A stretch of DNA of 64,000 bases from a plasmid. The translations under genes were made by a program, and so were the position numbers. The stretch lies in the sequence record NZ_CP017041.1. One strand, given 5' to 3'. The notes beneath the pieces were generated by a model. That model was not told where the DNA came from. It ran no database searches and saw only the letters and a list, made by a program, of their open reading frames with translations. Positions 1 to 44,983 of this stretch are shown here, in pieces. Positions within the stretch are counted from its first letter, which is position 1; each line of letters starts with the position of its first letter.

Positions 1-514
1 CCATTGGCGCTAATATCGCAGCGATAAAGAGCGCTACACTGACTCCTAATAGAAACTGCTCATAAATATTTCTATCAAGTATCATATTACCGAGAATAGG
101 ACCTACCGCCGCAGTGCAATTCGCGACAACTTGAATGACAGCGAAACCGCGGTTTTGGGAAGCTCTATCAGGAGTTGCTAGCGCTATAAAGCTTCGCACA
201 CCAGTACCATTAACACTGAACCCTAGGCCCGCAGCGCCCAGAGCAGCAATTATCGCATAGGGGTTTGCCGTAAGCGCCACAACAGCGTAAGAAACCGAGA
301 TCAGAGTAAGAGCAATTCTTACGCAACTTCGCACTGATAAACGGTGAAGTGGCGAAGCAAGAAATAGAGCACCACCACGAGTCATCAGTGTAAGCACGCT
401 TACCGACCCCGCGATGAGTCGTTCCTGCGTACTTCCAAATTTCAATGTAAGCAATAGAGGGAGGACCGGTAGCAACGCAAAGTAAGATGATTGGCTGAGA
501 ACTTGGTCTGCCAT
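1..514 (-). CDS. Membrane transporter (MFS-like), N-terminal part; gene continues beyond window start
   Basis: The minus-strand reading frame opens at an ATG near 514 (MADQVLSQSS...) and runs off position 1. It is hydrophobic and TM-rich with a G-x-x-x-R-G loop motif typical of MFS. It is absent from the ORF track because it is truncated by the window edge. Confidence 0.45.
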   Translation of the reverse strand, partial: MADQVLSQSSYFALLPVLPLLLTLKFGSTQERLIAGSVSVLTLMTRGGALFLASPLHRLSVRSCVRIALTLISVSYAVVALTANPYAIIAALGAAGLGFSVNGTGVRSFIALATPDRASQNRGFAVIQVVANCTAAVGPILGNMILDRNIYEQFLLGVSVALFIAAILAPM

Positions 515-1173
515 AATGAGGTTGAATACGCGCCCAGGAAGCCGAGACTTCGACGGTTTACTTCGTGTCCCTATTGTCTTCACTGGCACCCCTAAACTTC
601 AGTCCAATCAACAACTCTAACAGCTTTTTTAATCGCTTCATCACAAACTTTATCTTCCCGCACGAATCTTCGAGTTTAATGCTCATATTGGTATGACATA
701 TTCGATGCATAAAGATTTCTCTAGTGAATATTAGACATTATATCTATGCTCTTGGTTCATGCGAAGATTATCGGTCGTTCCAGACGTTGGCGAAGAGTGC
801 GAATAGTGGTGCTGTCTTCACTGGCTCCGATCATTCACATAGCTGATGGCCTGTCGGTCTATGACGCCAGAACACACCTCGACCGAGAGCTCAACCACGA
901 GCCGCTGTGGGAATAGTGAACACGGAACTCATATTAGCAGCGACCCAATCACGCATCTCAACATGTTTGTGAGTAGAGAAATTATTCATAATTAGGCGCA
1001 AATCCTTCCTAGAGTAAACAGAAAAATCCTTGATGGCAATATTGGACGTTGACAACTCCAGCCACGCGACTGACGACGATGTTTAAAGCTGCGAACAAGG
1101 TTATCGTAGCGTGCCGCATAATATAGTCATGGTGTGTGTTTCACTGCTCACCGTAAAATCTACTGCCACGCAA

Positions 1174-2481
1174 CTAATCTCTGCTTACAGGAGCGACACG
1201 CACTACGCAAGCATTAGCAGCGCGATCCAATAACTGAGTCACTGTATGCTCGTCATTACCACGGGCAACAATAGCAGCTACCCTTGCATGCGAACCATTT
1301 ACTGCATGTGCTACTTCTCCTGGGAAGCATTCCCAATACAAATCGATTTCTTCAGGGACACTGTCATAGAGCGAAACCTCTGATACCACTCCAGGCGAGG
1401 CTTCGATAAACTTTGAAGCAGCACACTGGGTTATCTCAGGCAAAGGATGGAGAGGAAGTCCACACAAAGAATCAATCAGATTTCCATAGTAGTCGATCCC
1501 TGGTCGCACAGCTGACACAAGATCCGGCGCAATAAAATCTCCACCTTGACGCACGTGAAATTCTCCCCATACAATTTTTTTCTCAGGTGTGACCCAAAAT
1601 TCAACATGCAGATTTCCACACTCAATTCCAAGCGCATTTACACAGCTTTGAAGCTGTTCTTCAAATTCAAGTTTGCTGGATATACTGTTCAGATCAGCTG
1701 GCTGGATATGACCAATTTCAACGAAATCTTCGTTGGTTGTTTTTGCTGTGGTTGTGTAGATGCATACCCGTCCATCTATAGCAATACCCTCAACTGAGTA
1801 CTCAATACCCGTGATAAACTCTTCTAAGCAGTAATTCCCCTCGAGAACGACAGCATCAAGTCCAGAAGTATCTTCAACATTTAAGATGTGTCTAACGCCA
1901 ACACTGCCCATTCCTATGGATGGCTTAACAATCCAGCCTCTTGGGCTATCGGTTGGTTTTTCAACGACAGCGCCTGATGCATCACTAAATTGTAGGCACC
2001 CATCAGAAGTCACTCCAACAATACGCAAGCTTTGTGGCTGATAGATACCAGCTTTTCGAAGCGCATCGCGGCACGCTGGTTTATCTTGGATACGTTCAAT
2101 ACAATCAGCAGTATTTCTAGCAACACCAATAGCTTCAGCTAAAAGACTATTCTGCAACTGATAATTTTCGCGCAGTGCCGTTGAAAGAGCTATCTTTCCA
2201 GGGCATCGGGTTTCAATTTCTGTCGCTATTTTAGCGATCTCATCAGCATCTAAGCTTCTCCTGTAGGGTCCGGATATTCTAATTAAACAATCGACAGAAA
2301 TCGGCGGAATTTTGTTCTTTAGTTCTTCCTCGAAATCTACGCCACATATCATTATGTGGCGCTTCTGGCACGCTTCATAGAAGCTTTTAAACCAATGCGT
2401 TGAGGCATGAGATCCAGATGTGGTGACACCTACCAAAACCGCCCATTTTCTTTCAGCCACTACGCTGTCACGAGAAAACAT
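1174..2481 (-). CDS. ATP-grasp family carboxylate-amine ligase
   Basis: 435 aa ORF. It has an ATP-grasp-like glycine-rich segment (GWIVKPSIGMGSVGV) and lies last in the NRPS operon. Confidence 0.75.
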   Translation of the reverse strand: MFSRDSVVAERKWAVLVGVTTSGSHASTHWFKSFYEACQKRHIMICGVDFEEELKNKIPPISVDCLIRISGPYRRSLDADEIAKIATEIETRCPGKIALSTALRENYQLQNSLLAEAIGVARNTADCIERIQDKPACRDALRKAGIYQPQSLRIVGVTSDGCLQFSDASGAVVEKPTDSPRGWIVKPSIGMGSVGVRHILNVEDTSGLDAVVLEGNYCLEEFITGIEYSVEGIAIDGRVCIYTTTAKTTNEDFVEIGHIQPADLNSISSKLEFEEQLQSCVNALGIECGNLHVEFWVTPEKKIVWGEFHVRQGGDFIAPDLVSAVRPGIDYYGNLIDSLCGLPLHPLPEITQCAASKFIEASPGVVSEVSLYDSVPEEIDLYWECFPGEVAHAVNGSHARVAAIVARGNDEHTVTQLLDRAANACVVRVAPVSRD

Positions 2482-3181
2482 TTAACCATTCCCTTCTTCC
2501 AAAACCTTCATGTGCATAATGCCCTCCGGTCACTTCGATCAATCTGTACGTCTCACTCGTAGCTTCACGCCATTGGACGGCCTCTTCGGAAGAAACAATC
2601 TTATCATCAATAGCGGAAACACAGGTTATAGGGACATGAATCTGCTTAAGTTGGTTACCACAACACGATTCCGCCAGTAAGAGATCATCGAGCGTAGGGC
2701 GAACAAACAGATCATCGGATTCATCGGAGTTCAGAATACTTTTAGGAGTCAATCCGTAGCTACGCATACGCTGCCGTGCACGTTCCAAGTTCCATCCCTC
2801 TCGCTCCCCCCTGTAACTCTTAGGACTTTGCCCACATAAGGCAACCAAACGAGTCGCGAAAATTCCGTCATTTTCTAAAATATTAGCAGCTACGAACGAC
2901 AACATCGCGCCAAAGCTAACCCCGGCGAGTATCAACGGCCCAGTCGGAATTTCGAAGGATGATCGAAACTTGCTGACGAACTCTCCCATGGTTCTGATGC
3001 CGGGTTCAAGTAATCGTTGACCCCTGCCAGGCGGGCAGTAACCCCAAACTGTAGTATCCCCCTCTAAGACAGACATCGATTGAAAGGCAGGAGCTCCGGC
3101 ACCCGTAGGAGGGAATATCAGGACTGTGGAGCAACAAGAGGTAGTTGCTGAACTAATACGCTGCCAAACTTCCGGATTCAA
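2468..3181 (-). CDS. Type II thioesterase (alpha/beta hydrolase)
   Basis: 237 aa ORF with the GxSxG nucleophile elbow (AGVSFGAMLSF). Its size and operon position are typical of editing TEII. Confidence 0.8.
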   Translation of the reverse strand: MNPEVWQRISSATTSCCSTVLIFPPTGAGAPAFQSMSVLEGDTTVWGYCPPGRGQRLLEPGIRTMGEFVSKFRSSFEIPTGPLILAGVSFGAMLSFVAANILENDGIFATRLVALCGQSPKSYRGEREGWNLERARQRMRSYGLTPKSILNSDESDDLFVRPTLDDLLLAESCCGNQLKQIHVPITCVSAIDDKIVSSEEAVQWREATSETYRLIEVTGGHYAHEGFGRREWLNVFS

Positions 3182-4917
3182 TGCTCACGCTCCTCAACAG
3201 GCATCAGCAAGCTGACCAAGCAGGAAATCGTTGGATTGGAATAGAAGTTCCGCAAGGGGACACGAACACCAAACTGTTTACCGATGGCGGTCAAAAGCTG
3301 AACAGCGCGCAACGAATTTCCACCTGCGGAGAAAAAATCACGATCTTCACCGTGGATCTTCTTTCCAAGGACCATATCCCAGATATTTTGCACTTGATCG
3401 TGAACACTGTTACGCTGCATTTGTCCTTGGGATATTCTGTCGTGATCGTAGAGTTCGCTCTGTGCTACCAATTTCAGGCACTCGCACCGATCTATTTTTC
3501 CCGTTCTTGATCTAGGAACATTCTGCGTAGTTACGATCTTGAGAGGAATCATATAGGAAGGTAGAAATTCGGCAAGACGAGAAGTCGTGACCTGAGACTC
3601 CCATTCGCGTGGAATCACGAGCGCCAAAAATCCACCACTGCCTTGGTGATAAACTGCACCACATTGTTTCGTGGAGTTAGCAACTCGAGCTGCAGCTCTT
3701 TCAACCTCTTCCAAGTGGATCTTGTGTCCAGCGATATTTACCGCATTATCGAGCCTGCCAACCAGTGAAAGGACACCATCCTTGATGATTCCCAGATCAC
3801 CAGTCCGTATTTCACGTTGTCCACTTCCAAGTGTAAAGAACGCATCGTCCCCTGGACTGAGTTGACCATTAACGATATATCCATCGGCCACTGGGGCACC
3901 CTGTACGCATATCTGTCCCTCTTCCCCAGATAACTTTTCGTTACCTTTCATGTCCCGAATTACAATTTTCGTAGCACAGATCGGCTCGCCAAGGGGGATA
4001 GGGTCCGGAATGCTACCTGACCGAGAAACCTCGAAACTTGTTGTGTTAGCCGACGTCTCAGTAGCTCCGTAAAGATTCACTACTCGCGCACGGGGCGCGA
4101 TCTCGAAGAATTGACGGACAACGCTTGCCATCAGCTGGTCTGCACTGCTGCACGCTAGACGGAGCTGAGGAAGAGTGCTCCCTTGCTCTGTGGCAATGTC
4201 ACACAAGCTGGCTAGTGCTGGAGGTGTCGTAAAAAGGTGGGTAGCACCACTAGACGCAAGTCGATCGAACATCACGTCAGGTCTGCTACGCTCGATATTA
4301 GTAATCAAAACACCAGTAACACCTGCCAGCAGAGTCCCCAACACTTCCCAAAATGAAGCAACAAATGAGAGTGGCTTCTGGACGACCACAAGATCGCTTG
4401 ACTCGTAAGGGTAGGCGTTCCACATCCACGTGATACGGTTCCGCACCGCATCCATTCCTACTTGGACGGCTTTCGGAACTCCTTCTGATCCAGATGTGAA
4501 ATATAAGAATTTTGATTTATCGCTCCAGGTCAAGGACCTGACATCACTTATCCAGTTCCCTGCAAAAATTGCTTCTTCCGCTGTTGAGTCGTCGATCAGA
4601 ACCGTTTTAGACCCAAGATTAATAATCATGTCCCGCTCTCGTGAAGCCGGAATATTCAACGGAATCCAAGCAATCTTGACAGGCAACGTCACAGCTGCTA
4701 TTACAAGGGCAACAGATTTGGCGGATAAATCGAGTCGAGCAGCAAAAGTAACGCCCTCACTTTGTTCTCGGTTGAACCACCTTCTCCACGCAAGGATATT
4801 TTTAACTAGCTGTTCCCATGAGCATTGCTCGCCGGCGGGACCGGTCAGACAGACATCACCTGGTTTCTGAATGACTATATTACGAAACCCCTCCAGCAAA
4901 TCATGTGACGGTTGCAT
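3178..4917 (-). CDS. NRPS adenylation-PCP didomain protein
   Basis: Core A-domain motifs are present: A3 (TSGSEGVPKAV), A5 (NLYGATETS), A7 (IRTGDLG), A8 (GRLDNAVNIAGHKIHLEEVE) and A10 (RTGKIDR). The PCP motif (FFSAGGNSL) follows at the C-terminus. Confidence 0.9.
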   Translation of the reverse strand: MQPSHDLLEGFRNIVIQKPGDVCLTGPAGEQCSWEQLVKNILAWRRWFNREQSEGVTFAARLDLSAKSVALVIAAVTLPVKIAWIPLNIPASRERDMIINLGSKTVLIDDSTAEEAIFAGNWISDVRSLTWSDKSKFLYFTSGSEGVPKAVQVGMDAVRNRITWMWNAYPYESSDLVVVQKPLSFVASFWEVLGTLLAGVTGVLITNIERSRPDVMFDRLASSGATHLFTTPPALASLCDIATEQGSTLPQLRLACSSADQLMASVVRQFFEIAPRARVVNLYGATETSANTTSFEVSRSGSIPDPIPLGEPICATKIVIRDMKGNEKLSGEEGQICVQGAPVADGYIVNGQLSPGDDAFFTLGSGQREIRTGDLGIIKDGVLSLVGRLDNAVNIAGHKIHLEEVERAAARVANSTKQCGAVYHQGSGGFLALVIPREWESQVTTSRLAEFLPSYMIPLKIVTTQNVPRSRTGKIDRCECLKLVAQSELYDHDRISQGQMQRNSVHDQVQNIWDMVLGKKIHGEDRDFFSAGGNSLRAVQLLTAIGKQFGVRVPLRNFYSNPTISCLVSLLMPVEEREH

Positions 4918-4939
4918 CTTTATCTCCCTTCATACTACA

Positions 4940-7900
4940 TCAATAGCTTTTGAGCATTGTTATCTGAGATGTATCACAATCATTAAGGGCAGTTTTTATG
5001 GCATTAGCGACAGTCGTCTTCCCCGAGAGCCAATCAGAGGTAAGGAACCACGCTGTAAGAGCCAGTACTTTATTAGCGCGTTCTGGTGTCACATACGCCA
5101 CTTTATAAGCAAGTTGCAAGGTATAATCTTCGCCGTGTCGCTGGATATAAAGAGACGCATCATATTTCGTAAACCCAGTATTCAATTCAGTTAAGTGAAG
5201 GCTTCGATCACCATCCCAAAACTCCAGAGACGGGTAAGTAAGCATATTCACCATCGTGCTAAACAATGGATCCTCGTTCGTGTGATCAGCGAACTCAGAA
5301 ACAACCTTGCTAAATACGCTGTCACCGAATGAGACAGCTTCAGTCACATTAGATATCATCGAACGTACTGTGTCACTAATTTTCTTTTCGACATCTATAC
5401 GAGTTCGTATTGCAATCATGTTAAGCATCAGAGTTGGGACGCCAATTTCATACTCATCGTTTCGCCCTGCTACTGGTGCACCGACAACAAAATCATGTTG
5501 GTCAGAGACCGCTGCCAACGCTAACGAATAAGCAGCCACGAATACTGCAAATGGGCTTGTACTCAATGCATGCGCAGTGGAACGGATCTCAGCAGTCGCT
5601 TCGTCATCTAGAGAGACCTCTATAACAGAAGCAGCGTAGGGATCACACGAACTATTTAATGTATCGCGCAATGGGAAACATGATTTCACTCCATCGAGTG
5701 ATTTTGACCAAAATTCTCGTGCTTCAGCGGATATCTCTTCAGGTTTCGACAGATGTTGGAAATATTCCAGAGCTGAAGTCATAGCTGTCTTGACTTCGAT
5801 CTCCTGATCGTCCATGTTACGACACTCAAAAAGAGAAATTAACTGTTCCATGAACTTCATTGCTCCCCAGCCATCGATAAGGATCTCGTTCATGGTCAAA
5901 ACGAACCAGGTAGAATATCCATTTATACGGATCTCGTCCACGGCGATAGCGGGACCTTCCTCCAGGTTAAAAGGGACTGCTGCTTTCATCCAACAGATCT
6001 CACGAGCCTCTTGCGCAGAGGCCACTTCGTGTATTGAGATTTCATCCATATCGATAGCAGAGATAGGAAACGTCTGTGTAAATCTCCCAGTTGAATCCAC
6101 TCCAAACTTCGCCATTAGCTGTGGATTCGCCCGTAATGCCTGGCCAAGAGCACGACGGATTCTATCGGTGTTCGACCCAGCGCATTCTAACAATATCTGA
6201 TAATTATAGTAAGGGCTTTCAGGCTCCAGTAGCCATTGAAAATAAATTCCTTGCTGAGCCGGATTCATATCACAAGTCAAAGGAATTTTGACGTCATCAA
6301 AGCGGGAAGGAGATCTTTTTGCAGAGGTCGATTTCTTCGGAGATATCTGTTGTGCTTGATATTCTTTTGCTAGAGAGCCTAACGTATATGAAGAAAGCAA
6401 ATCTCGTACTCTTACGTAAGATCCTCGTGAGCGGACAATATTGGCTAGCTGAATTGCTCGAAGAGAATCGCCTCCGGATTCGATGAATGTTAGTTCTGGA
6501 TTCACAGGAGTGCCAAGCACGTCCTGAACGAGAAGAATGAAAGAGTCCTGATTCTGTTCAACTCTACCGGGAATGGATCCCTCTCTTGACTCTTGAATTT
6601 CATTCAGTAACAGTTCCCCGGCACGGCGCTCTAATAACTTAATATCTACCTTGCCATTTGAAGTAGTGGGAATATCAGTAACCTCTATCCAACGGGATGG
6701 ACACATCACTCTAGGGAGACTGCTTTTCGCGCGATTATTAAGCATTTTGGGAGTAACTAAACAATCGGCGCGAGGAAGATAGAATGCGGCCAAGCTAGCG
6801 TCTCCTTGGCGAAGAAACTGGTGCGTCGTTTCTCGGAGCACCATTGCGCGACGTTCACGGACACGAGGGTGGAATTTAACCACTACAACGTCTTCAAGCT
6901 CTGGGATTTCTCGAAGGATACGGTTCTCGATTTCACCGGGCTCAATCCGTACTCCACTAATTTTTATCTGTCGATCAGCGCGGCCATCGTAAACCAGCTG
7001 ACCATCCGCTCGCTGGTGAACGAGATCTCCGGTGCGGTATATTCGGAATGGGTATCCATCAATCCTGGCAAATGCTTGAGCGGTTTTATCTGGGCTTCCG
7101 ATATAACCTAAACCCACACAAAGACCAGCAACAAAAAGCTCGCCTTGCGCTCCAGGAGAAACTGGACGCCAAGTACCTTCTGCGTACTCTAGGACGTATA
7201 AAGACGTATTAGGTATTGGAATTCCGATGGGAACTTCACCTGAGTTAAGCGATTCGCCATCCACGATCGCATGCGTTACATCATCAGAACATTCCGTAGG
7301 ACCATACGCATTAATCAACGGGACAAACGGAAATTTGTCTGCCCAGTCTCTAGCCAACCGAAGGGGTAATTCTTCACCAGTCACCAGAACATACTCAAGC
7401 CCAGAGAAAGACACGCTTGACCCAATTTCGTGAATAAGTTCACGAAATACTGTCGGAACTAGTTCAATGTGTGTTATATGTTTCTCTTCCAGTAAAGAAA
7501 AAAGCTCATGTGGATCCTGTGAAATACCGTTGGGGACGATACGTACTGCACCGCCTACCAGTAAAGCTGAACAAAATTGCCAAATGGATACATCAAAGGT
7601 GGTAGGTGCCGTCTGGGCCACAACTGAGTCAACACCAAGATGAAGGAGATGGGCTTTGCTATGCAAGTGATTCATCATGCCCATATGCGCGATTAGCGCA
7701 CCTTTCGGTTCACCTGTGCTACCCGAGGTGAAAAAGCAGTAGCTTGGAGCGTTGAAAGGATCATCCACACGCTCCAGAAATGTGACTCCTAATGGTGCCT
7801 TTGCTTCCGTTACGTGCGAGGTATTTTCAGTGAAAATGGCGACCGCGTTCGTGATTGTCTTAATATGTTTACGACGAGCCTCTGGCCACTGAGGATCAAT

Positions 7901-8236
7901 GGGTGTATAGATGGCACCTACGGCACTACAAGCTAGGATATCGACAAGACATTCGATACCGCGCGAGTGCTCTGAAATGACTACTCTTCCAAAGGCATGT
8001 TTCTTTTCCAAGAGATAGGCTCGATTGTTAACTCGATTCAATAACATTTCGTAGGTGATTTCTTCACCATGAATATCTATTACGGCAACGTGATGTGAAG
8101 TGATCTGGGCCCATTCAACTAAATACGAGTAGAGTGTGCGTTCTAAAGGCCAGTCGACGTTTTCCCCGACCAGTGCACTCCGGGTAGCGAGCAAGCTCAA
8201 CCCATTTTTTTCCAAACTTTTGGTAAGGTTTATCAC
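4940..8236 (-). CDS. NRPS A-PCP-C tridomain protein (C domain C-terminal, with degenerate HHxxxDG core)
   Basis: A domain motifs FTSGSTGEPKG, NAYGPTECS, YRTGDL, GRADRQIKISGVRIEPGEIE and NGKVD are followed by PCP (ESGGDSLRAIQL). A condensation domain follows, with a C1-like MNPAQQGIYFQ and a core reading MNEILIDGWG instead of HHxxxDG. Confidence 0.9.
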   Translation of the reverse strand: MINLTKSLEKNGLSLLATRSALVGENVDWPLERTLYSYLVEWAQITSHHVAVIDIHGEEITYEMLLNRVNNRAYLLEKKHAFGRVVISEHSRGIECLVDILACSAVGAIYTPIDPQWPEARRKHIKTITNAVAIFTENTSHVTEAKAPLGVTFLERVDDPFNAPSYCFFTSGSTGEPKGALIAHMGMMNHLHSKAHLLHLGVDSVVAQTAPTTFDVSIWQFCSALLVGGAVRIVPNGISQDPHELFSLLEEKHITHIELVPTVFRELIHEIGSSVSFSGLEYVLVTGEELPLRLARDWADKFPFVPLINAYGPTECSDDVTHAIVDGESLNSGEVPIGIPIPNTSLYVLEYAEGTWRPVSPGAQGELFVAGLCVGLGYIGSPDKTAQAFARIDGYPFRIYRTGDLVHQRADGQLVYDGRADRQIKISGVRIEPGEIENRILREIPELEDVVVVKFHPRVRERRAMVLRETTHQFLRQGDASLAAFYLPRADCLVTPKMLNNRAKSSLPRVMCPSRWIEVTDIPTTSNGKVDIKLLERRAGELLLNEIQESREGSIPGRVEQNQDSFILLVQDVLGTPVNPELTFIESGGDSLRAIQLANIVRSRGSYVRVRDLLSSYTLGSLAKEYQAQQISPKKSTSAKRSPSRFDDVKIPLTCDMNPAQQGIYFQWLLEPESPYYNYQILLECAGSNTDRIRRALGQALRANPQLMAKFGVDSTGRFTQTFPISAIDMDEISIHEVASAQEAREICWMKAAVPFNLEEGPAIAVDEIRINGYSTWFVLTMNEILIDGWGAMKFMEQLISLFECRNMDDQEIEVKTAMTSALEYFQHLSKPEEISAEAREFWSKSLDGVKSCFPLRDTLNSSCDPYAASVIEVSLDDEATAEIRSTAHALSTSPFAVFVAAYSLALAAVSDQHDFVVGAPVAGRNDEYEIGVPTLMLNMIAIRTRIDVEKKISDTVRSMISNVTEAVSFGDSVFSKVVSEFADHTNEDPLFSTMVNMLTYPSLEFWDGDRSLHLTELNTGFTKYDASLYIQRHGEDYTLQLAYKVAYVTPERANKVLALTAWFLTSDWLSGKTTVANAIKTALNDCDTSQITMLKSY

Positions 8237-8243
8237 TCTATAT

Positions 8244-9233
8244 TCACCGTTTCATGTCTCCGTGAAAGTCTGGAACACGTAATCCATCGCCGGATATTTG
8301 AACGTGCTCGTACAAGCTTTGAGCAACAGCAAGGTCCAAAATTCCTAAACCAAAAGGAGAGAATACGGTTGGATGATCAGGGTCAAGCTGCTTCTCAGAG
8401 CATATGAATTCCGCCAGTGTGCCTGTGATGAAATTTCGATTTCCGTTCAATTGTTCGAGGAGGTGGGGTGTAGTGTTTGCCTTCAGGCAATGTTCAACAT
8501 CATCAAACACGTTATTAGCCGTTCGAATGGTCTCAGGGTGTAAATCACGAAGCGAGATATTGAGAACGAGCTGGTTCGGTTGGAAACGTACACTCATCGG
8601 CACATAAGGAGTTCCGGCGCTGGTGGCTAATAGCACGAGATCACAGCCAAGAGCTTCTTCTAAACTGACTACCGAACACTCGGGGCCGTGGCGAGTGACT
8701 ATACGTGCGACTAATTCACTATTTAAATCGTGAATTTTCACTGGAACCGCTGTCGTGTATAGCGACTTAATAAAATGTAAAGTTGTCTGTGCGATAGGGC
8801 CACTGCCTACTACACCGATACTCGTAGGAGCACCGTGAAGAACTCGAACTGCAAGCGCAGCCGAGGCAGCTGTACGAGCCGCACTAATGCGGCTGGCCTC
8901 GATGAACGCATAAGCATAGCCGTTATCTGTGTTATTTAGCACGATGACTGCTGAAGCTCTTTGTAGCCCATGATCAACATTCTCAGGAAAGCTAGAAATC
9001 CATTTAATTCCCGACACACAGGTTTGATCATTGATATAAGATGGCAACGCTATGATACGATCTCGTGGAGCATCTGGAAACCGAAGAAAATAACTATCGG
9101 GACATACTGTATTTCCAGCGTGATGTGCTCGATAAACACGTTCAACAAGATCGATGAGAAACGACTCTCTGCCTTTTAAAAATGTTTCGACAAGCTTGGC
9201 GTCTATAATTAGCATTTCACCATATTTCGTCAT
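8244..9233 (-). CDS. sbnB: SbnB-like NAD-dependent dehydrogenase (ornithine cyclodeaminase/mu-crystallin family)
   Basis: 329 aa ORF with a Rossmann motif (GVVGSGPIAQ) in the OCD-family layout. It sits directly downstream of the SbnA-like gene, the canonical Dap-synthesis pair. Confidence 0.75.
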   Translation of the reverse strand: MTKYGEMLIIDAKLVETFLKGRESFLIDLVERVYRAHHAGNTVCPDSYFLRFPDAPRDRIIALPSYINDQTCVSGIKWISSFPENVDHGLQRASAVIVLNNTDNGYAYAFIEASRISAARTAASAALAVRVLHGAPTSIGVVGSGPIAQTTLHFIKSLYTTAVPVKIHDLNSELVARIVTRHGPECSVVSLEEALGCDLVLLATSAGTPYVPMSVRFQPNQLVLNISLRDLHPETIRTANNVFDDVEHCLKANTTPHLLEQLNGNRNFITGTLAEFICSEKQLDPDHPTVFSPFGLGILDLAVAQSLYEHVQISGDGLRVPDFHGDMKR

Positions 9234-10235
9234 TTAAATACCTTCCGTTTCTTTCACTTCGTGCGCAACAGGACGAATGGCATAATTAAATGCTGATTCC
9301 CCAAAGTTTTCCATAACCCAATCGTCGTTATATACTCCATCCAGATACCTTTCACCAAGATCCGGCGCAATAATGACAACGCGGCTTCCCTCGGGAATTT
9401 TATCTCGAAGAGCATCAAAAGCTGCTAGCACAGTGCCAGTCGATCCACCCGGTAAAAATCCTTCTACCTGCGCAATGCGTCGGCACTGTCTCACGGTATC
9501 GATTTCATCAATATAATACCGTTTTAGAGGAAATTTTTCGTCAAAGATTGGTGGCTTTACACTAGCGCCTAGACCAGGGATATATCGCCGCGAAGGAGCT
9601 CCTCCGAAAGTCACTGAACCAGTGCTATCAATAGCATAAACTTTGGTGCATGAACCACGCTTCATGACAGCCCTAGATACACCCATAAGCGTGCCAGTGG
9701 TACCAGCACCTACAAATAGGTAATCAGGATCTCCTAACTCTTCGACGATCGCTCTATATGTCTTTTTGGAATGAACCTCAGGATTGGCTACATTTTCGTA
9801 CTGGTTTGTCCATAAAGGCCCTCCTGGCATCTCTACTAATTCGCGAACTCTAGCAAGTCGCGTCCCAAGAAATCCGCCCGCTGCATCCAATGATTGAACA
9901 ACTTCCACTTCCGCGCCCAGTGCACGCATATGCGAAATCGACCTTGAATTTGCATTCAGATCTGTAACAATTGTTAATTTGTATCCTCGGCGCGCACATA
10001 CACCGGAAAGTGCTATGCCTAAACTCCCAGAAGAAGACTCTACGACCCAACCTCCTGGCTGAAGACCATGAAGCTTTTCTAAGCTATCGACGAGTGCAAT
10101 AGCCGTCTTGAGTTTTACGGAACCAGCAGTGTTTAAACCTTCTAATTTTGCGTAAACATCATGTTTAGGAAATGAATTTTTCAAGCGGACAAATTGAGAG
10201 TTTTCATCTAGTTCTTCAATAGATCCTGCAATCAT
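9234..10235 (-). CDS. sbnA: SbnA-like PLP-dependent synthase (cysteine synthase fold)
   Basis: 333 aa ORF with a PLP-lysine motif (KLEGLNTAGSVKLK) and glycine-rich loops (GAGTTGT, GGSTG). It is the first gene of the NRPS operon. Confidence 0.8.
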   Translation of the reverse strand: MIAGSIEELDENSQFVRLKNSFPKHDVYAKLEGLNTAGSVKLKTAIALVDSLEKLHGLQPGGWVVESSSGSLGIALSGVCARRGYKLTIVTDLNANSRSISHMRALGAEVEVVQSLDAAGGFLGTRLARVRELVEMPGGPLWTNQYENVANPEVHSKKTYRAIVEELGDPDYLFVGAGTTGTLMGVSRAVMKRGSCTKVYAIDSTGSVTFGGAPSRRYIPGLGASVKPPIFDEKFPLKRYYIDEIDTVRQCRRIAQVEGFLPGGSTGTVLAAFDALRDKIPEGSRVVIIAPDLGERYLDGVYNDDWVMENFGESAFNYAIRPVAHEVKETEGI

Positions 10236-10425
10236 TTATTTGCTCCTACTGCGCATGACATGACATCGGAAGTTTTCATAACATACAAGCAAATTATAAT
10301 GAGGAGTCTTGTACAGGCTATGGGCGTTATTAGAAGAGGTTTAGGCAAGAAGTTAAGGATCTTGATCATGTTGATCCTGCCTACGAATGGCGTTGATAGA
10401 ATGACAGAGACAACAACACATATGC
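10236..10425. promoter_or_regulatory. Divergent promoter region between NRPS operon (minus) and PPTase gene (plus)
   Basis: A 190-bp AT-rich intergenic region lies between two divergently oriented genes. No promoter motifs were computed. Confidence 0.3.
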
Positions 10426-11250
10426 GTGACCTCCCTAGTGATACACGCTGAAGTAACTTGTCACCTACTTCATGAGCTAGTCTATCTCCTTATAGGACCA
10501 CATAAAAGAGAGGACCAAAAATTGATCTACATTTCTCGTGTGTCACTCGATACATTCCCCAAGAGTGCCTTGCCACAGCTGATGGAAAGAGCTAGTCCTG
10601 AACGACGAGATAGAGCACGAAGATACGTGCGAATCGATGACTGCTTGCGCTGCCTCATAGCTGACGAACTCCGGGCCTATTCATTGAAGCTTGATTACAA
10701 GGTGCCAGTACAGTCAGAGGTATCGAAGAACGCTTTCGGGAAGCCGCTACTAGCAAACCGCGATGGTCCTAAGTTCAACTTGTCGCACGATGGGAAGTGG
10801 ATTGTCTGTGCCACAAGCCCACATCCTGTAGGCGTAGACGTCGAGGCAGTCGCTGAGCCAGGTTTAGCGGTGGTCTCGAACGATTTTTCAGTGGAAGAAG
10901 TGGAGGCCTTGCGGACGACCGCTACGGCTCCCCTCTCCATCGCTCGAGCGATGATCTGGACACGGAAGGAGGCATACCTCAAATATCTGGGGTTGGGTCT
11001 CACTGTTCAGTTAGATTCTTTTTCAGTAATAGATCAAACCTTGCTGTCGCCAGCTGAAGGGATGACAGACGGTATTCAGTTTTATAGTTGGTGCGATGCC
11101 GATAACTCGCATGTGATCTCTGTCTGTGGCCACGGCGAGGAAGTCGTCATCTCTTGCGTCAGCGGGCAAGAATTACTAGATGGACTGCCACCATCTCACT
11201 GTTCAGAAGAACCTCAAGAGCAACTTCGTTGGTTGCCCAATCTTAGTTAA
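10426..11250 (+). CDS. Sfp-type 4'-phosphopantetheinyl transferase
   Basis: It has the FNLSHDGKWIVCATSPHPVGVDVE and WTRKEAYLKYLGLGL (W/FxxKEA) motifs. The true start may be internal, because Sfp enzymes are about 230 aa. Confidence 0.7.
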   Translation: MTSLVIHAEVTCHLLHELVYLLIGPHKREDQKLIYISRVSLDTFPKSALPQLMERASPERRDRARRYVRIDDCLRCLIADELRAYSLKLDYKVPVQSEVSKNAFGKPLLANRDGPKFNLSHDGKWIVCATSPHPVGVDVEAVAEPGLAVVSNDFSVEEVEALRTTATAPLSIARAMIWTRKEAYLKYLGLGLTVQLDSFSVIDQTLLSPAEGMTDGIQFYSWCDADNSHVISVCGHGEEVVISCVSGQELLDGLPPSHCSEEPQEQLRWLPNLS

Positions 11251-11349
11251 GATCATTTTGTAATTATCAAAATTCCAAGTCGCCTCGAGAAAAGCATTAA
11301 CAGAGATCATATCTCACCAGGAGAGATGCGGCTTAAATAACCTTCTCTT

Positions 11350-12054
11350 TCAATCCTTCATGACAGCTAGGCTCTTCACCTCGTCACGATCAAGTACTGG
11401 ATCACTCATGATAGATTTTTCGTGCTCAGCAATGCATCGTGGGCACTTTTTGAAAAAAACTGATCCGAAACGAGTTATACCTGCTGGTAGTGGCCCGTAA
11501 TTAGTAGCTATCTTGGCTATAGCTCCCCATGAAGGAAGAACCCATTCCACAGACTGTCCTTGAGCAGGTACATCCGCTGAACGTCGATAATCAAATCCAC
11601 CCAAGAGCTCCGCAAGATCCCAATAAGCATAAAATAGATCCGAGGCCAAATCGCTCTTCGAATGGACTTCTTGTCGCAAGTCACCATCGTGTAAAATAGC
11701 GATAGTGGATCCCCGATCCTCCCCATGCACCAATGGTGGCATGGAAGAAAATTTCCGAGTATTATAGACATGTACCCAACCAGATACGGATTGCTCTGGA
11801 GCCATCGGGACAACATGTGCTGGTATGGAATCGAATCCTAAATAAAAAGCTGCTCGACACCTGTGGGCTCCATCAAGGATGATGTAAGGTGCCCCTTGGG
11901 CTACGTGGATGCTTTCTCGTAATGCTTCATGTTCTAGCAATTTTGTAAGACGCTTGAGACGCAAAGTCTCACATTCCTCATGCCATACGAGTTGGTTTAG
12001 CGGAAGATACGATGATAACTCACAGCTACTACTAATTTTCATCAATTTCATCAA
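11350..12054 (-). CDS. ParB/sulfiredoxin-fold (ParB-like nuclease domain) protein
   Basis: 234 aa ORF. It carries the motif YIILDGAHRCRAA, which matches the DGxHR ParB/Srx signature. It is the last low-GC gene before the compositional junction. Confidence 0.45.
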   Translation of the reverse strand: MMKLMKISSSCELSSYLPLNQLVWHEECETLRLKRLTKLLEHEALRESIHVAQGAPYIILDGAHRCRAAFYLGFDSIPAHVVPMAPEQSVSGWVHVYNTRKFSSMPPLVHGEDRGSTIAILHDGDLRQEVHSKSDLASDLFYAYWDLAELLGGFDYRRSADVPAQGQSVEWVLPSWGAIAKIATNYGPLPAGITRFGSVFFKKCPRCIAEHEKSIMSDPVLDRDEVKSLAVMKD

Positions 12055-12956
12055 CTCTCAATGCACTATTAATGGCAACCTGGTCTTGAGATATCCGATC
12101 TATGACTCGGACCACTTTTTCATTGAGTAAGACAGTTTCTAGTATGTTTACTACGAATAAGGGAAAACTTTCTTCAATTTTACCTTAGGGAAAGATATCT
12201 CATAGTTCCGCATCACGACTATTGAAATTTGTAGATCGACCGACTTCTATAACCGATAAATTATGGGCGACTACAGCGATGTCTGTCGAGGCACCAACGA
12301 TGATTCTCGACAGCCCTGGACCCGCACTATCTCTTTTTGGGATGGAACGCATCGCATTGGCAATGCCTAACAGATCATGCTCTTCCGATCCTTGTCCATA
12401 CTTAACTGATGACCGCAGAAGCACAGATGCGGTAGGCATGGGCGGTGTCCGGATCATCCCCCCTTGGGAGCTAAGAGACCGTCGTTGATCACTACATCGA
12501 ACAAGGCCTGCAGGATAGGTTTACAAAACCGATCCGCCGCTACCACCAGTTCTGACACAAGCTTACGTACCATTGTTGATGCCATATCGCTCCTTCGCAG
12601 AAGCGTTCCGGGGGCTCGCAGACGGCATTGGCACCTTGGCACCGATGTCCGTGAATCCACAACGGAACCTGAAACTGCCCCACACGGTCTGATGCTCCGA
12701 CTTTCGTCAGCTTCCCCAGATCATCCGGGGCATCAATCCATTACCAGATTGACACTTAGCACTGTACCCTCACCAAGACCACACCAGCATCGAGGACGGT
12801 GGGAGAGAGGCGAACCCGCCACCACACGATGCACAAATACAAAAATACATAGGCATCATGATGCTCTTGGGCATCTCGCATACCCCCGTACGGTGCCCAA
12901 ACTCAATCCCTACGCAAAGCTCGCAGGCCTAAGTCTGCCCATCAAAATCATGGCTT

Positions 12957-13754: not shown

Positions 13755-15453
13755 TGGTCGCCTCCTCGGGGAGTCCTACTTGCTCGGCCTGCTCTGATAG
13801 AGCAGCCCGCTCCGATCCGGTCTGAGGCGCTTCCAAAGGGCCCGGCAAGACACCTTTGACACGCAGCCGCCCGTCCTTGCCGTCATCGCCGCCCCCCTGG
13901 GCCACAGGGAGCGCCCAGGGGGGCACGTTGCTGGTGTAGATAGCGTCGCCGTGGATAGCCAGCAGGGTGCGGGAGTTCATGCGTAGTGCTCCTCCCTTGG
14001 TTGTGGCGTTTTTTCCGGTGGTGGGGTCGGCGATGGGTGTGTTGAGGGTGCGTACGCGGGACAGGGCCCAGATGCGGGCGGCGATTTCGGGGTGCCAGGT
14101 GTCGGGGTCGGGGCGGCGGCGGGCGGTTTGGTATTGGTAGGCGATGGTGTCACCGGTTTTGTTGCGGATGACGTCGAAGCCTTCGATGTCGGAGGGGATG
14201 TCGTCGGCGTCGTAGACGACGGTGGTGGTGACGGGGTTGGAGGCCGACATTTGGCCGATGGTCACGCGCAGCATGTTTTTCAACGCGGAGGTGAGGATTG
14301 TCGTGGCGGTGGGGTTTTTGTCTGCCCAGCGTTTCTCGGCGATGTCGATCATGTCTTGGATGGTTTTGACCCATCCTCGGATGGGATCGACTTTGGTCAG
14401 TTTGATCCCTTCGAGGAACTCGATGGGCTGGGTGATGGGCCCATTTGGTCCGGCTTCGGTGTCCCAGCCTTCGTCGATGGCTAGTTTCAGTTCGGCGGTA
14501 TCGACCCATGTTTCGTGGGTGGTGCCGGGCACGTTGGGCCAAAACCATCCTGCTCGTCCTTTGGTGCGTTTGACCGGTAGTAGGCCGATGTCGTCCCACC
14601 AGGATGGCACGGTGAAGCGGATGTGGTAGCGGGCCGGGTGCCAGGGGTTGTTGGTGAACAGGTCGCGGGCTTCGGTGGCGCTGAGCAGAGTGGCGGGTGC
14701 GGCACCGATCTCTCCGGTCACTGATCCGGCATACATGAATCGGCCGTCGATGTACACGAAGTTAGGGATAGGGCCGGCAGGCACGGTGGGGCGCCAGCCC
14801 TTTTCGCGGTCCTCGGGGTTGCCGTCGTCGACGCATAGTTCGTAGCGGTGCTGAGGGGAGGTGTGTTGGATGAGTGCGCCCAGTTCGGGGTCCATCGGCT
14901 CCATGCGATAGGACTCGGGGGTCCGTAGCTTCCAGAGGTTGATTCCTTCTGCTCCGGGGCGGTCCATGAGGGCCCAGTCGCGGTCGATTCTGGTGGCGAT
15001 GATGTGGGTTAATTCGCGCCATGCCCAGCGGGCCTGGATTGGGGTGAGGGTCTGGCCAGGGAACCATTCATCAGCGACCAGAATGTCGAGGTTGCGGTCG
15101 GTTTCTTTGTGGGTGAACCGGCCTCGGGCGGGCCGCCCGGACAGCATGAACAGGCCCCGCACGTGCCAGTCCTGGTTGAACTCGCGGGTGTGAGCGGGGG
15201 TGTCAGGCAGCAGCCAGGATTGAGGCTGGTCGGGGATGTTACCGCAGACGATCAGGCGTCGGGCGTTGTGGTGTAGCGCGGTTGTTAGCAGGTCTGACAG
15301 GGTTGCGTGCTTGGTGCGTCGTCCCCCCAGCACTGGCAGGATCTCGTTTCCGGCCGCGTCGACTCCCCGGGCGGTGTCGATGTCTAGCCACACTGTTTCG
15401 GGGTCGGGGGGCCGATGTGGGGCGGGACGGCGCTGCTCCTGGTCGTCTCTCAT
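13747..15453 (-). CDS. Large replication-associated protein; possible primase-polymerase (AEP-like) N-terminus
   Basis: 568 aa ORF. The N-terminus has an hhhDhD-like motif (VWLDIDTARG) followed by LGGRRTKH, reminiscent of Prim-Pol motifs I and II. There is no Walker A. The assignment is weak. Confidence 0.4.
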   Translation of the reverse strand: MRDDQEQRRPAPHRPPDPETVWLDIDTARGVDAAGNEILPVLGGRRTKHATLSDLLTTALHHNARRLIVCGNIPDQPQSWLLPDTPAHTREFNQDWHVRGLFMLSGRPARGRFTHKETDRNLDILVADEWFPGQTLTPIQARWAWRELTHIIATRIDRDWALMDRPGAEGINLWKLRTPESYRMEPMDPELGALIQHTSPQHRYELCVDDGNPEDREKGWRPTVPAGPIPNFVYIDGRFMYAGSVTGEIGAAPATLLSATEARDLFTNNPWHPARYHIRFTVPSWWDDIGLLPVKRTKGRAGWFWPNVPGTTHETWVDTAELKLAIDEGWDTEAGPNGPITQPIEFLEGIKLTKVDPIRGWVKTIQDMIDIAEKRWADKNPTATTILTSALKNMLRVTIGQMSASNPVTTTVVYDADDIPSDIEGFDVIRNKTGDTIAYQYQTARRRPDPDTWHPEIAARIWALSRVRTLNTPIADPTTGKNATTKGGALRMNSRTLLAIHGDAIYTSNVPPWALPVAQGGGDDGKDGRLRVKGVLPGPLEAPQTGSERAALSEQAEQVGLPEEATSD

Positions 15454-15971
15454 GGTTTCCTCCTTTGGGCCAGGGAGCGGCCGGCGTCGAGGGCGTTCAT
15501 GCGCTCGCGTTGTTCTTCGCGTAGTTGGTAGACCCGGCCTCGTGACACTCCTGCTGCCTCGGCGATGGTGGTGGCCGGCAGGTGGCCGATGGCGGCAGCG
15601 TCGGCAAGGACGTCACGCCAGGCCAGGTCAATGGTTCCCAGCTGGGCTAGAGCTTCGTCGCGGCGGCGGGTGGCATCAGCCACTACGGAGGCCCACCCTG
15701 TGGGGTGGATGGTCTTGACGACGATTCGGTTGTGGCGGATGGGGCCCCATGCATCAGCGGGGACTTGCCAGCCGTGATTGGCGGCGGACTCGGTGATCTT
15801 GAGGCGTCGCTCAGGTGCGCGGGTGCGGGCAGTGACGTCGGTGTTCCAGGTCTGGACTGGTACCCACGTCCCTTCTCGGATGCGTTCGATGACGCACGTG
15901 GTGACCTCGTCGGTGACTGTGATGACCAGACGATAATCTTTCCCGTCTGGGGTGGTTCGGTAGCTGGGCAT
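15450..15971 (-). CDS. Small DNA-binding protein with C-terminal HTH
   Basis: 173 aa ORF with a C-terminal HTH (IAEAAGVSRGRVYQLREE). It is a paralogue of ORF 18095..18658 in architecture. Confidence 0.45.
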   Translation of the reverse strand: MPSYRTTPDGKDYRLVITVTDEVTTCVIERIREGTWVPVQTWNTDVTARTRAPERRLKITESAANHGWQVPADAWGPIRHNRIVVKTIHPTGWASVVADATRRRDEALAQLGTIDLAWRDVLADAAAIGHLPATTIAEAAGVSRGRVYQLREEQRERMNALDAGRSLAQRRKP

Positions 15972-16040
15972 GTCACCCTCCCCTATCTGTCAAATGAGCT
16001 AGACACAGTGTCTATTTAATTTGACGCAAAGTCAAGTGTG

Positions 16041-16640
16041 CTAGACGCCTTTGTGTGGATCCGCCCGCCCAGACAGGCACTCACGTCTCATGACCCGCCG
16101 CGACGTCTTAACGAAACCAAACCGCTTATAGAACCGCTCCGCAGCGGGCCCGGAGGGCTTCAGTTCGAGGGTGAGACCGTGCTCGTCGGCCCATTGGCAG
16201 ACTTGTGTGAGGATCTGTGAGCCGTGGCCTTGAGTGCGGGGGACGGCGTGGACGCACATGAGCATGGGGCCGTGGCGGCGCGCTGGCGGGGCCACGTAGG
16301 CTCCGCCATGCCAGTCCGGTGTGGTCTGCCAGCTTCGCCATGTCGCGGTACGCCAGTGGTGGGCTTCGAGGGCCACCATGATCACCGCGACGACGACGAG
16401 CGTTGCGGCCCCGATCATGGCCAGCTCACCCTGGCCAGGCCAGTTCCCGCAGATGATCCAGTCTCTTAACGCCCAGATGATCGCGGCTTCCACGCCTGCT
16501 GCGATCGGGATGAGCAAGGCAGAACGACGGTGTCCTGCCATGATCTCGGTGATCTCGCTGCGATGCCACGACAAGGAGAATTCCCACGACTCTTGAATCA
16601 TGCTGATGTGTGAACGGCTTCTTCGGCTTCGCCCTGCCAT
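16041..16640 (-). CDS. GNAT family N-acetyltransferase with N-terminal membrane segment
   Basis: The C-terminal half has GNAT motif A (GHGSQILTQVCQWADEHGLTLEL) followed by AERFYKRFGF. Hydrophobic helices precede it. Confidence 0.5.
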   Translation of the reverse strand: MAGRSRRSRSHISMIQESWEFSLSWHRSEITEIMAGHRRSALLIPIAAGVEAAIIWALRDWIICGNWPGQGELAMIGAATLVVVAVIMVALEAHHWRTATWRSWQTTPDWHGGAYVAPPARRHGPMLMCVHAVPRTQGHGSQILTQVCQWADEHGLTLELKPSGPAAERFYKRFGFVKTSRRVMRRECLSGRADPHKGV

Positions 16641-17002: not shown

Positions 17003-17096
17003 AGATGAAGGTGCCACAGCCGGGGTTGATGTGCGGAACCACAGCCACTTTTTCAATAAATCCATCACCAATCCATCACCACGGTCTCACCCCTTC

Positions 17097-17128
17097 CCAA
17101 ATGTGTAAACCATGATTTACACATTTGG
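17097..17128. promoter_or_regulatory. Perfect inverted repeat (13-bp arms, 6-nt spacer), operator-like
   Basis: The sequence is ccaaatgtgtaaa-ccatga-tttacacatttgg. It is preceded by the direct repeat atccatcacca x2 (17061-17082) and lies in the divergent region upstream of ORF 17132. Confidence 0.4.
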
Positions 17129-17131
17129 GGC

Positions 17132-44982: not shown

Positions 44983-44983
44983 G

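Follow-up and report, generated by a model that had tools for sequence, protein, structure and literature searches.

The stretch of DNA analysed here (hereafter the window, 64,000 nucleotides of plasmid record NZ_CP017041.1) opens with a biosynthetic gene cluster (BGC) predicted to make and use 2,3-diaminopropionate (Dap). The listing of open reading frames (ORFs) and profile searches placed on the minus strand the genes for SbnA, SbnB, two nonribosomal peptide synthetase (NRPS) proteins of adenylation-thiolation-condensation (A-T-C) and adenylation-thiolation (A-T) architecture, a thioesterase (TE), an ATP-grasp enzyme (AG1) and a major facilitator superfamily (MFS) transporter, with a divergent gene for an Sfp-type 4'-phosphopantetheinyl transferase (PPTase). 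The initial annotation of the locus had listed this same set (the sbnA/sbnB pair, two synthetases with peptidyl carrier protein [PCP] domains arranged A-PCP-C and A-PCP, a type II thioesterase, an ATP-grasp protein, a transporter and a divergent PPTase), and every item was recovered at its given place. It had set the extent of the cluster at 1-11250; the genes named do lie there, but the cluster goes on to 12054 with a kinase gene, and the surrounding low-GC island to ~12,400-12,600. The features are as follows.

1-514, minus strand: N-terminal part of the MFS exporter gene (ATG at 514, alternative GTG at 583; the gene runs past the window edge)
515-1173, minus strand: non-coding scar of 659 bp with a frameshifted IS630-family transposase remnant, between the ATP-grasp gene and the transporter gene
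1174-2481, minus strand: AG1, ATP-grasp ligase of predicted L-amino-acid-ligase type (Pfam ATP-grasp_4/3, weak LAL_C2)
2468-3181, minus strand: stand-alone thioesterase, type II-like (Pfam Thioesterase, E 2.3e-10)
3178-4917, minus strand: NRPS 2, A-T (Pfam AMP-binding and PP-binding)
4940-8236, minus strand: NRPS 1, A-T-C (Pfam AMP-binding, PP-binding and Condensation)
8244-9233, minus strand: SbnB, NAD-dependent dehydrogenase of N-(1-amino-1-carboxyl-2-ethyl)-glutamic acid (ACEGA) (TIGR03944; Pfam OCD_Mu_crystall)
9234-10235, minus strand: SbnA, pyridoxal phosphate (PLP) enzyme (TIGR03945)
10236-10425, no strand: divergent intergenic region between sbnA and the PPTase gene, with presumed promoters, by position alone
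10426-11250, plus strand: Sfp-type PPTase (Pfam ACPS and AASDHPPT_N)
11350-12054, minus strand: predicted free L-serine kinase of the SerK/SbnI family, 234 aa (NCBIfam SbnI, E 3e-6)
12055-12500, no strand: edge of the low-GC island, with GC of ~0.35-0.47 climbing to >0.6 by ~13,000

The minus-strand junctions consist of gaps of 0, 7 and 22 nt and overlaps of 4 and 14 nt, a tightness that fits a single operon. The description of the locus as a compact operon holds to that extent, but the 659-bp IS630 scar parts the ATP-grasp gene from the transporter gene, and a second ligase is absent. A scan for promoters and terminators returned no more sites than expected by chance. The part of the MFS gene inside the window encodes ~171-194 aa (1-514/583) and matches Pfam MFS_1 (E 4.5e-9); the full gene, 383-406 aa, is found in identical contigs (L012 and L013), and the window portion is 56-72% identical to the MFS genes that close the orthologous clusters described below. 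The PPTase has AusB as its closest NCBIfam model (E 6.5e-17, under the cut-off of that model), and its GC content at third codon positions (GC3), 0.50, is in line with the rest of the island.

The best-defined part of the cluster is its Dap supply module. SbnA scores 390.1 bits with the equivalog model TIGR03945 (cut-off 349.95) versus 160 bits with the housekeeping model cysK (cut-off 351) and 126 bits with cysM, and its closest solved structure is SbnA of Staphylococcus aureus (213 bits, E 4e-62), with cysteine synthases reaching at most 143 bits. SbnB scores 403.1 bits with TIGR03944 (cut-off 326.9), and the two genes abut, the sbnA stop at 9234 being followed by the sbnB start at 9233. These equivalog scores rule out a housekeeping pair of CysK and ornithine cyclodeaminase (OCD) type. 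Moreover, alignment of SbnA to structure 5d87 showed that the equivalents of Lys47, Arg132 and Tyr152 are kept; together with Ser185, we take these to be the PLP and O-phosphoserine-site residues of S. aureus SbnA, Lys47 being the PLP lysine. The earlier assignment of the two proteins as a true L-Dap synthase pair is upheld by the equivalog scores and the nearest structure, with three of these four active-site residues retained and Gly at the Ser185 equivalent.

The kinase gene, which lies beyond the PPTase gene, would complete this module. Its product reaches only 26.8 bits with the NCBIfam SbnI model NF033589 (cut-off 350, E 3e-6), aligns nearly end to end with the SbnI crystal structure 5uje (E 5e-5, residues 16-197) and is nearly an orphan in a word-indexed search. 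An exhaustive profile search started from it reached 179 proteins, and a family alignment was built of 55 full-length sequences (54 profile hits and the window protein). NCBIfam SbnI is matched by 45 of these 55 members (best E 2e-144), and SerK, the archaeal ADP-dependent serine kinase, by 40. Every sequence in the alignment has His25, Glu26, Gly62 and Arg65, and at least 90% have Asp61 and His64, so that the protein carries both the HE (H25/E26) and the DGxHR (D61-G62-x-H64-R65) catalytic elements of ParB/Srx type. The AlphaFold2 (AF2) model, made from a 3-sequence alignment, had a mean confidence (pLDDT) of 36 and was unusable as a test of the fold. By profile, structure alignment and conserved residues, the protein is a divergent member of the SbnI/SerK family of free-serine kinases, and no SbnI orthologue; most plausibly it would supply O-phosphoserine to SbnA. 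The flanks of the orthologous clusters showed no kinase gene of this kind. With kinase, SbnA and SbnB, the island encodes a complete predicted route from serine to Dap.

Outside the plasmid, orthologues of the A-T-C protein form just four clusters at 52-61% identity, after which identity drops to 36% or less. In these relatives the gene order is sbnA-sbnB-ATC-AT-TE-AG1-AG2-MFS, at times followed by a PPTase gene, AG2 being a second ATP-grasp ligase. Colinear loci occur in Paenarthrobacter and in three metagenomic lineages, and the AG1 profile added Raineyella and a second Paenarthrobacter.

The NRPS core is conserved across these loci and unusual in its active sites. The specificity codes of both A domains were extracted against GrsA, for which the control gave the textbook code DAWTIAAICK, as listed for this domain (PMC11355689). 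The A domain of the A-T-C protein (A1, ~6617-8116) has the code DVWELTADDK, in which three acidic residues stand behind a short pocket, and the pattern D[IV]WE[LIM]TADDK is conserved in the eleven A-T-C proteins examined. An SbnA-type PALP gene is found close upstream of the A-T-C gene in all 11 loci examined and an SbnB-type gene in 10 of them, none being called in a soil-metagenome locus (L009). L-Dap would be the obvious substrate of A1. The A domain of the A-T protein (A2) has the code VAWFCSLANK, invariant in seven orthologues examined (including the window, L002-L004, L007 and L028), and reads VAWFTGLSNK in a Streptomyces relative. Asp235, the anchor for the alpha-amino group of an A-domain substrate, is kept in A1, and its position is occupied in A2 by Val (FVASFW, 4348-4365), in the window as in all relatives. 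Lys517 and the motifs TSGS(T/E)G.PK, NxYGxTE, TGD and GK(V/I)D are intact in both domains. An aliphatic residue in place of Asp235 is a reported hallmark of keto-acid-activating A domains (PMC10949194; PMC11355689), and because A2 carries Val there it probably loads an acid without an alpha-amino group, of the keto-acid type. An amino-acid substrate fits A1 with its acidic pocket code, but is not predicted for A2, in which Val replaces Asp235 in all orthologues. A domains predicting non-amino-acid substrates had been named in advance as evidence that would speak against the initial proposal of a small Dap peptide or pseudopeptide, and such evidence was found for half of the pair, A2 alone.

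Both carriers have intact PCP serine motifs, GGDS in the A-T-C protein (6461-6475) and GGNS in the A-T protein (3310-3324). The C domain (~5102-6268) is full length and reads NEILIDG where HHxxxDG is expected (5870-5890), a register confirmed by alignment to the solved A-T-C protein 5u89 (MHHMIVDGWS against MNEILIDGWG). Orthologues carry [N/H/S]ExxxDG, and the ~34%-identical Streptomyces/Amycolatopsis clade HExxxDG, with Glu at the position of the catalytic His throughout. Judged from these alignments, the His-to-Glu change marks a whole clade of condensation domains. A literature search for the HExxxDG motif found no paper. The Glu-type C domain is always paired with a Dap-type A domain, with an Asp235-less A domain as well in 10 of the 11 loci examined, and the A1/A2/C trio is linked to SbnA/SbnB nearly always.

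The thioesterase has a GVSFG nucleophile elbow (2909-2923) and a C-terminal GGHYAH, both conserved in all orthologues. Its start codon overlaps the A-T stop by 4 nt, and this translational coupling recurs in every orthologue; these features make it the probable release enzyme. Release by amine capture, as initially proposed, finds no support, since the C domain has NExxxDG without the catalytic His and the thioesterase, with its GxSxG intact, is conserved and coupled in every orthologue.

AG1 matches Pfam ATP-grasp_4 with 48.9 bits and LAL_C2 with 19.6 bits (cut-off 29.4). Its AF2 model (pLDDT 88.5) retrieved L-amino acid ligases as leading Foldseek matches (3VOT, E 9e-25 and template-modelling [TM] score 0.73-0.79; BacD, TM 0.71), with biotin carboxylases at ~0.6. 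The model thus points to an ATP-grasp enzyme with an L-amino-acid-ligase fold, for which ligase activity is predicted. The AG1 family is tiny, with 31 clusters among 5.8 billion proteins, and never occurs apart from this BGC family or its remnants. For both AG1 and AG2, the nearest curated family is the N-terminal ATP-grasp domain of PRK02186 'argininosuccinate lyase' (E 1e-26 to 1e-29; window AG1, and positions 8219-9526 and 9523-10758 of orthologous locus L004). Going by its shared domain architecture, PRK02186 seems to correspond to the DabC-type fusion encoded in 2,3-diaminobutyrate operons; no function is assigned to the ATP-grasp half of that fusion (PMC10906522). The PRK02186-type ATP-grasp subfamily may be associated recurrently with SbnA-like PLP enzymes.

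Orthologues of AG1 (57-63% identity) also stand alone in Actinomyces, namely in A. oricola (L023), A. glycerinitolerans (L024), A. ruminis (L025) and a metagenome-assembled genome (L022). None of these four loci has sbnA/B, NRPS genes, AG2 or an MFS gene; in three of the four, AG1 is preceded by just a remnant of 29-39 aa of the thioesterase C terminus, and none was detected in A. oricola. This hints that cluster decay kept AG1 alone in Actinomyces and that AG1 has a use of its own.

AG2 is present in every full-length orthologous cluster and absent from the window, where tblastn with AG2 matched its paralogue AG1 alone. The 659-bp scar occupies the AG2 position, and its reading frames, once stitched, align with annotated IS630 transposases at 48-50% identity (E 2e-8, tblastn against annotated plasmids); Pfam gave no match on the stitched fragment. 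The Cutibacterium island has lost AG2 via an IS630 event. As the scar is 96-100% identical in all plasmid variants, this loss is old and fixed.

The cluster makes up a biosynthetic island of ~13 kb that skin Cutibacterium acquired by horizontal transfer and carries on a linear plasmid. At 99.5% identity the window matches linear plasmid pKB17-24694 from Cutibacterium modestum (AP024748.1), and from ~12,957 on its backbone, with genes for FtsK, a VirB4-like ATPase, a Tad ATPase and ParA, matches C. acnes HL096PA1-type plasmids at 88-92%. The GC content of the island is 46.5% versus 62.4% in the remaining window, and GC3 is 0.33-0.50 in all nine island genes versus 0.68-0.79 in backbone genes. 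The borders of low GC lie at ~12,400-12,600 on one side and just past the MFS gene on the other. Searches of the flanks for direct or inverted repeats marking a transposon gave just short matches at chance level. Hundreds of index blocks contain the plasmid, including blocks from skin metagenomes and from isolate genomes. In the assembly collection, 434 blocks index the identical AG1 protein, skin metagenomes included, with an identical gene layout in 8 of the 8 contexts displayed for blocks with the exact protein, and the A-T-C cluster at the 98% identity level has 4234 member sequences. In the AP024748.1 record (41474-53573, L001), SbnA is the sole cluster gene annotated by name, the large NRPS is called as a 1767-nt fragment, and the PPTase, kinase and MFS genes are left unannotated; these look like assembly frameshifts or annotation gaps, every reading frame being intact in the window copy.

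The sequence variation among plasmid variants argues for a functional pathway under purifying selection. In a comparison of the window with variants L011, L030, L031 and L021, in which eight genes were scored and the MFS fragment left out, all eight complete island genes were intact and free of stop codons. The ratio of nonsynonymous to synonymous divergence (dN/dS) was 0.13-0.41 across the eight genes, and 0.15-0.41 where dS exceeded 0.01; intact genes with such ratios argue against a decaying relic. AG1 had dS of 0.17-0.29 with dN/dS of 0.22-0.28, and the TE-AG1 segment dS of 0.11-0.32 with dN/dS of 0.20-0.28. This segment (2468-3181 and 1174-2481) is mosaic relative to L030 and L021, with 89-96% nucleotide identity versus 98.5-99.9% in the flanking genes and ~97% in the IS scar. 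The pattern suggests recombination of TE-AG1 with another, more strongly diverged allele of this low-GC island, and the existence of a pool of related islands. The original low-GC host of this pool was not found.

Altogether, read from its sequence, the locus is a real, intact, horizontally acquired orphan BGC, with a Dap supply module verified at the sequence level, an NRPS core that is unusual and conserved, and a plasmid prevalent on human skin. The literature search found no publication on this cluster or on NRPS genes or plasmid BGCs of Cutibacterium, and the cluster is an orphan family for which no characterised relative was found. The clusters truly related to it are uncharacterised ones of actinobacteria that share the A1/A2/C trio. 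Beyond the orthologues, Streptomyces atratus (L008), a soil metagenome (L009) and Amycolatopsis taiwanensis (L010) share with the island the A1 code family D[IV]WE[LI]TADDK, the Asp235-less A2 code VAWF..L.NK, the His-to-Glu C domain and the MFS exporter, with an SbnB gene in L008 and L010 and none called in L009. They differ in having only ~31-35% identity and no ATP-grasp ligases, and no characterised member was found in this group. The Amycolatopsis cluster has nothing beyond the A-T-C gene, being just sbnA-sbnB-A-T-C-MFS. In S. atratus, a thioesterase fused to an M20 (ArgE/DapE-type) deacylase/peptidase is encoded at 15081-17348 of the locus, and an S-adenosylmethionine (SAM) methyltransferase gene lies ahead of the A-T-C gene, which suggests an acyl-protection/deprotection or a methylation step in that branch. 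The orthologous cluster of Paenarthrobacter sp. NPDC056912 (L002, 20031-20447) has an extra small acetyltransferase of the GNAT family, weakly similar to amino-acid N-acetyltransferases and to ArsN2, the arsinothricin-resistance enzyme. It could be a self-resistance gene, which would hint at a toxic amino-acid-analogue product.

We propose a model in which the product is a small exported N-acyl-Dap pseudopeptide, released by the thioesterase and extended by one ligase, and we give this model about even credence. Gene and domain identities, active-site motifs and their conservation, the loss of AG2, the foreign origin and the purifying selection were read directly; from these we infer every substrate, the order of the steps and the product. 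The SerK/SbnI-type kinase would convert free L-serine to O-phosphoserine, which SbnA, using O-phospho-L-serine and L-glutamate, and then SbnB would turn into L-Dap. Once the PPTase had primed the T1 and T2 carriers, A1 would put L-Dap on T1, and A2 would put on T2 an acid without an alpha-amino group, likeliest a small alpha-keto or related primary-metabolite acid. The Glu-type C domain would couple both to an N-acyl-Dap thioester, which the stand-alone thioesterase would hydrolyse; AG1 would then append one amino acid and the MFS pump export the product. The ancestral pathway would have used two ligases, and with AG2 lost through the IS630 event the island product should be one residue shorter. 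Of the earlier proposal of a small Dap peptide or pseudopeptide, the peptide does not hold, whereas an acyl-Dap pseudopeptide fits better with an Asp235-less A2; the broader idea of a small hybrid NRPS/ATP-grasp Dap product is reasonable given the A1 code and the amino-acid-ligase fold of AG1.

Several points weigh against this N-acyl-Dap model. In the canonical order T1 is the donor and T2 the acceptor, and an amine-less acid on T2 cannot be an acceptor; the scheme hence requires the C domain to take T1-bound Dap as acceptor. Lacking the catalytic His, the C domain may be unable to catalyse condensation or may catalyse a different reaction. Modules for keto acids usually include a ketoreductase (KR) domain, and there is none here. 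The A1 and A2 codes, whole or partial, matched no characterised code in the full-text literature or the PARAS supplement. In SbnA, the alignment to 5d87 places a Gly at the equivalent of Ser185. Furthermore, the curated family nearest to AG1 is the functionally unassigned ATP-grasp domain of DabC-type proteins, and the loss of AG2 could have altered or abolished the original activity.

Under canonical two-module logic, Dap on T1 would be the donor, T2 would hold a nucleophile-bearing acid (beta- or gamma-amino or hydroxy), the C domain would make a Dap-X amide or ester on T2, the thioesterase would release it and AG1 would extend it. An A-T-C protein followed by an A-T protein is the standard donor-then-acceptor arrangement, the thioesterase comes after T2 in the operon, and the Glu that replaces His could act as the base towards a hydroxyl group or an amine in another position. 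We nevertheless find this logic unlikely to apply: the A2 code has, at 235 or 236, no acidic residue that could bind an amine (in beta-amino-acid codes the neighbouring position retains an Asp), no KR domain is available to convert a keto into a hydroxy acid, and no orthologous locus has a gene for a special amino acid besides Dap. A further hypothesis, distinctly unlikely in our estimation, is that the A1/A2/C trio forms a dedicated and previously unrecognised set doing non-standard Dap chemistry; for example, a T-bound alpha-keto acid would acylate one Dap nitrogen, and the other amine would then close a ring onto the keto group to give a dihydropyrazinone carboxylate. The C domain, being terminal and without a cis-TE, might also itself release T1-bound Dap or acyl-Dap, by capture of a free amine (VibH-like) or by intramolecular cyclisation, leaving the thioesterase an editing role only. 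In the minimal Amycolatopsis cluster the C domain must be able to release the product, but the C domain is without its catalytic His, no evidence points to an amine co-substrate, and the thioesterase is conserved in every full-length orthologue and M20-fused in the Streptomyces relative, which makes such a release very improbable in our view.

The island has counterparts of all three genes that supply Dap in the staphyloferrin B operon (SbnA, SbnB and an SbnI-type kinase), A2 is predicted to load a non-amino (keto) acid, and 2-oxoglutarate is released by SbnB itself, as is established for SbnB chemistry. The product could thus be a metallophore in which Dap is joined to a keto or dicarboxylic acid such as 2-oxoglutarate in a staphyloferrin-B-like chelating unit exported by the MFS pump. 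In some plasmid or element variants, genes for an SBP_bac_5 solute-binding protein and an Opp/Nik-type ABC permease lie ~7 kb beyond the MFS gene, outside the window (L030 20000-21308; L031 19690-21308), and this importer is relevant only if the product is a metallophore or a re-imported peptide. We hold a metallophore to be quite improbable: no NRPS-independent siderophore (NIS) synthetase (IucA/IucC), receptor or neighbouring siderophore-type importer is encoded in any of the orthologous loci, an element for iron regulation was likewise not identified, and the Paenarthrobacter cluster carries a GNAT resembling amino-acid antimetabolite resistance enzymes. Finally, the island could be a decaying, non-functional remnant hitch-hiking on a successful plasmid, with AG2 replaced by an IS630 scar, a C domain without its catalytic His, truncated gene calls in some assemblies (L033, AP024748.1) and, in three Actinomyces species, just AG1 and a thioesterase tail left. 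This we regard as highly improbable. The eight complete genes are intact with dN/dS of 0.13-0.41, and the TE and AG1 genes combine dS of up to 0.32 with dN/dS of 0.20-0.28; moreover, the Glu substitution is ancestral to the whole clade, including the intact clusters of free-living actinobacteria, and the scar predates the diversification of the plasmid variants.

Poly(L-Dap) (PDAP) synthesis is ruled out as a model: PDAP synthetase is Pls-like, having transmembrane-flanked C1-C3 domains and no Pfam Condensation domain (PMC4668381), whereas the island has a soluble C domain of standard length and a second A-T protein.

Among known systems, the dda cluster of Pantoea agglomerans comprises DdaA/B for Dap supply, DdaD as its single A-T protein, the stand-alone thioesterase DdaE, the ATP-grasp amide ligase DdaF, which joins an amino acid to an N-acyl-Dap, and an efflux pump, together with DdaG, DdaH and DdaC. 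The island resembles it in its SbnA/B-type Dap supply, A-T protein, free thioesterase, ATP-grasp ligase, efflux pump and logic of acyl-Dap plus amino acid, a likeness drawn gene set to gene set, with DdaF alone compared by hidden Markov model (HMM). It differs in its extra A-T-C protein with a non-canonical C domain and in its serine kinase. The only DdaF-like similarity, far below threshold, is confined to AG2, which is lost here: AG2 of the relatives reaches 39 bits with the DdaF model NF041595 (cut-off 840), and AG1, in the window and in its L004 orthologue, gives no match to it. No ORF with the domains of the acyl-AMP ligase DdaG, the amidotransferase DdaH or the iron- and 2-oxoglutarate-dependent (Fe/2OG) oxygenase DdaC was found in 1-12,500 or in the orthologous loci. 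The initially suggested dapdiamide type is hence reduced to an analogy, since DdaG, DdaH and DdaC equivalents are absent, AG1 has no DdaF match and AG2 is deleted. Like the sbn operon of S. aureus, the island encodes an MFS exporter and a serine-to-L-Dap route of SbnA, SbnB and an SbnI-family kinase; it differs in assembling by NRPS and ATP-grasp enzymes and in a kinase distant from SbnI (26.8 bits versus a cut-off of 350). No NIS synthetases (SbnC/E/F, IucA/IucC family), SbnG/SbnH or Sir/uptake genes were found among the island genes or in the orthologous loci. The cluster is, by such comparison, analogous to dapdiamide, yet a member of neither the dapdiamide nor the staphyloferrin B family.

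At the level of single proteins, AG1 shares with the L-amino acid ligases BacD/YwfE and BL00235 the fold (TM 0.71-0.79) and the ATP-grasp core, with 15-17% sequence identity. A2 resembles the keto-acid A domains of cereulide- and valinomycin-type depsipeptide synthetases and of StsA in having an aliphatic residue for Asp235 and keeping Lys517, but has no KR domain, is partnered by a non-canonical C domain, and its other code residues match no verifiable amino or keto acid.

Sebaceous human skin is dominated by the genus Cutibacterium, from which, to our knowledge, very few small molecules are known, essentially only the thiopeptide cutimycin. Being foreign, under purifying selection and carried by a plasmid that hundreds of index blocks contain, the island is a concrete candidate, accessible to experiment, for a bioactive compound produced by a commensal. 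By analogy with dapdiamide-type inhibitors of glucosamine-6-phosphate synthase, acyl-Dap peptides could act against bacteria or fungi. If the A1/A2/C trio did carry out non-standard Dap chemistry, a plasmid of a common human-skin commensal would encode small heterocyclic or antimetabolite molecules of a new class, with an influence on the skin community. Beside the product itself, the Glu-for-His C-domain clade constitutes a natural test of what the catalytic histidine is needed for, and the natural deletion of AG2 offers a ready comparison of ancestral and shortened products. The stakes rise if the Glu-type C domain proves to be new chemistry or if the product shapes the skin community.

Some further observations concern the distribution of the island. 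The same island, with plasmid-type neighbours, lies ~110-130 kb from one end of ~884-kb contigs in assemblies GCA_002572785.1 (L032), GCA_040486805.1 (L033), GCA_003384535.1 (L034) and GCA_002775615.1 (L031), one of them labelled C. acnes and another Propionibacterium sp. NM47_B9-13, and 57 index blocks have contigs of 0.2-1 Mb. The ~884-kb contigs reflect either integration of the plasmid in the chromosome of a common lineage or scaffolding joins. Copies or fragments of the island at 88-100% protein identity were also retrieved from unrelated bins, assigned to Lawsonella clevelandensis (L021), Rhodospirillaceae (L020) and Blastococcus sp. (L029, 326 bp); these are probably mis-binned or contaminating skin-plasmid contigs, L021 being a truly diverged allele of the island with 46% GC. 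In the plasmid backbone of the window, an intact IS605-type TnpB is encoded on the plus strand at 26014-27459, with OrfB_IS605, Cas12f1-like TNB and helix-turn-helix (HTH) domains, and this stretch is locally low in GC (GC 0.55, GC3 0.62).

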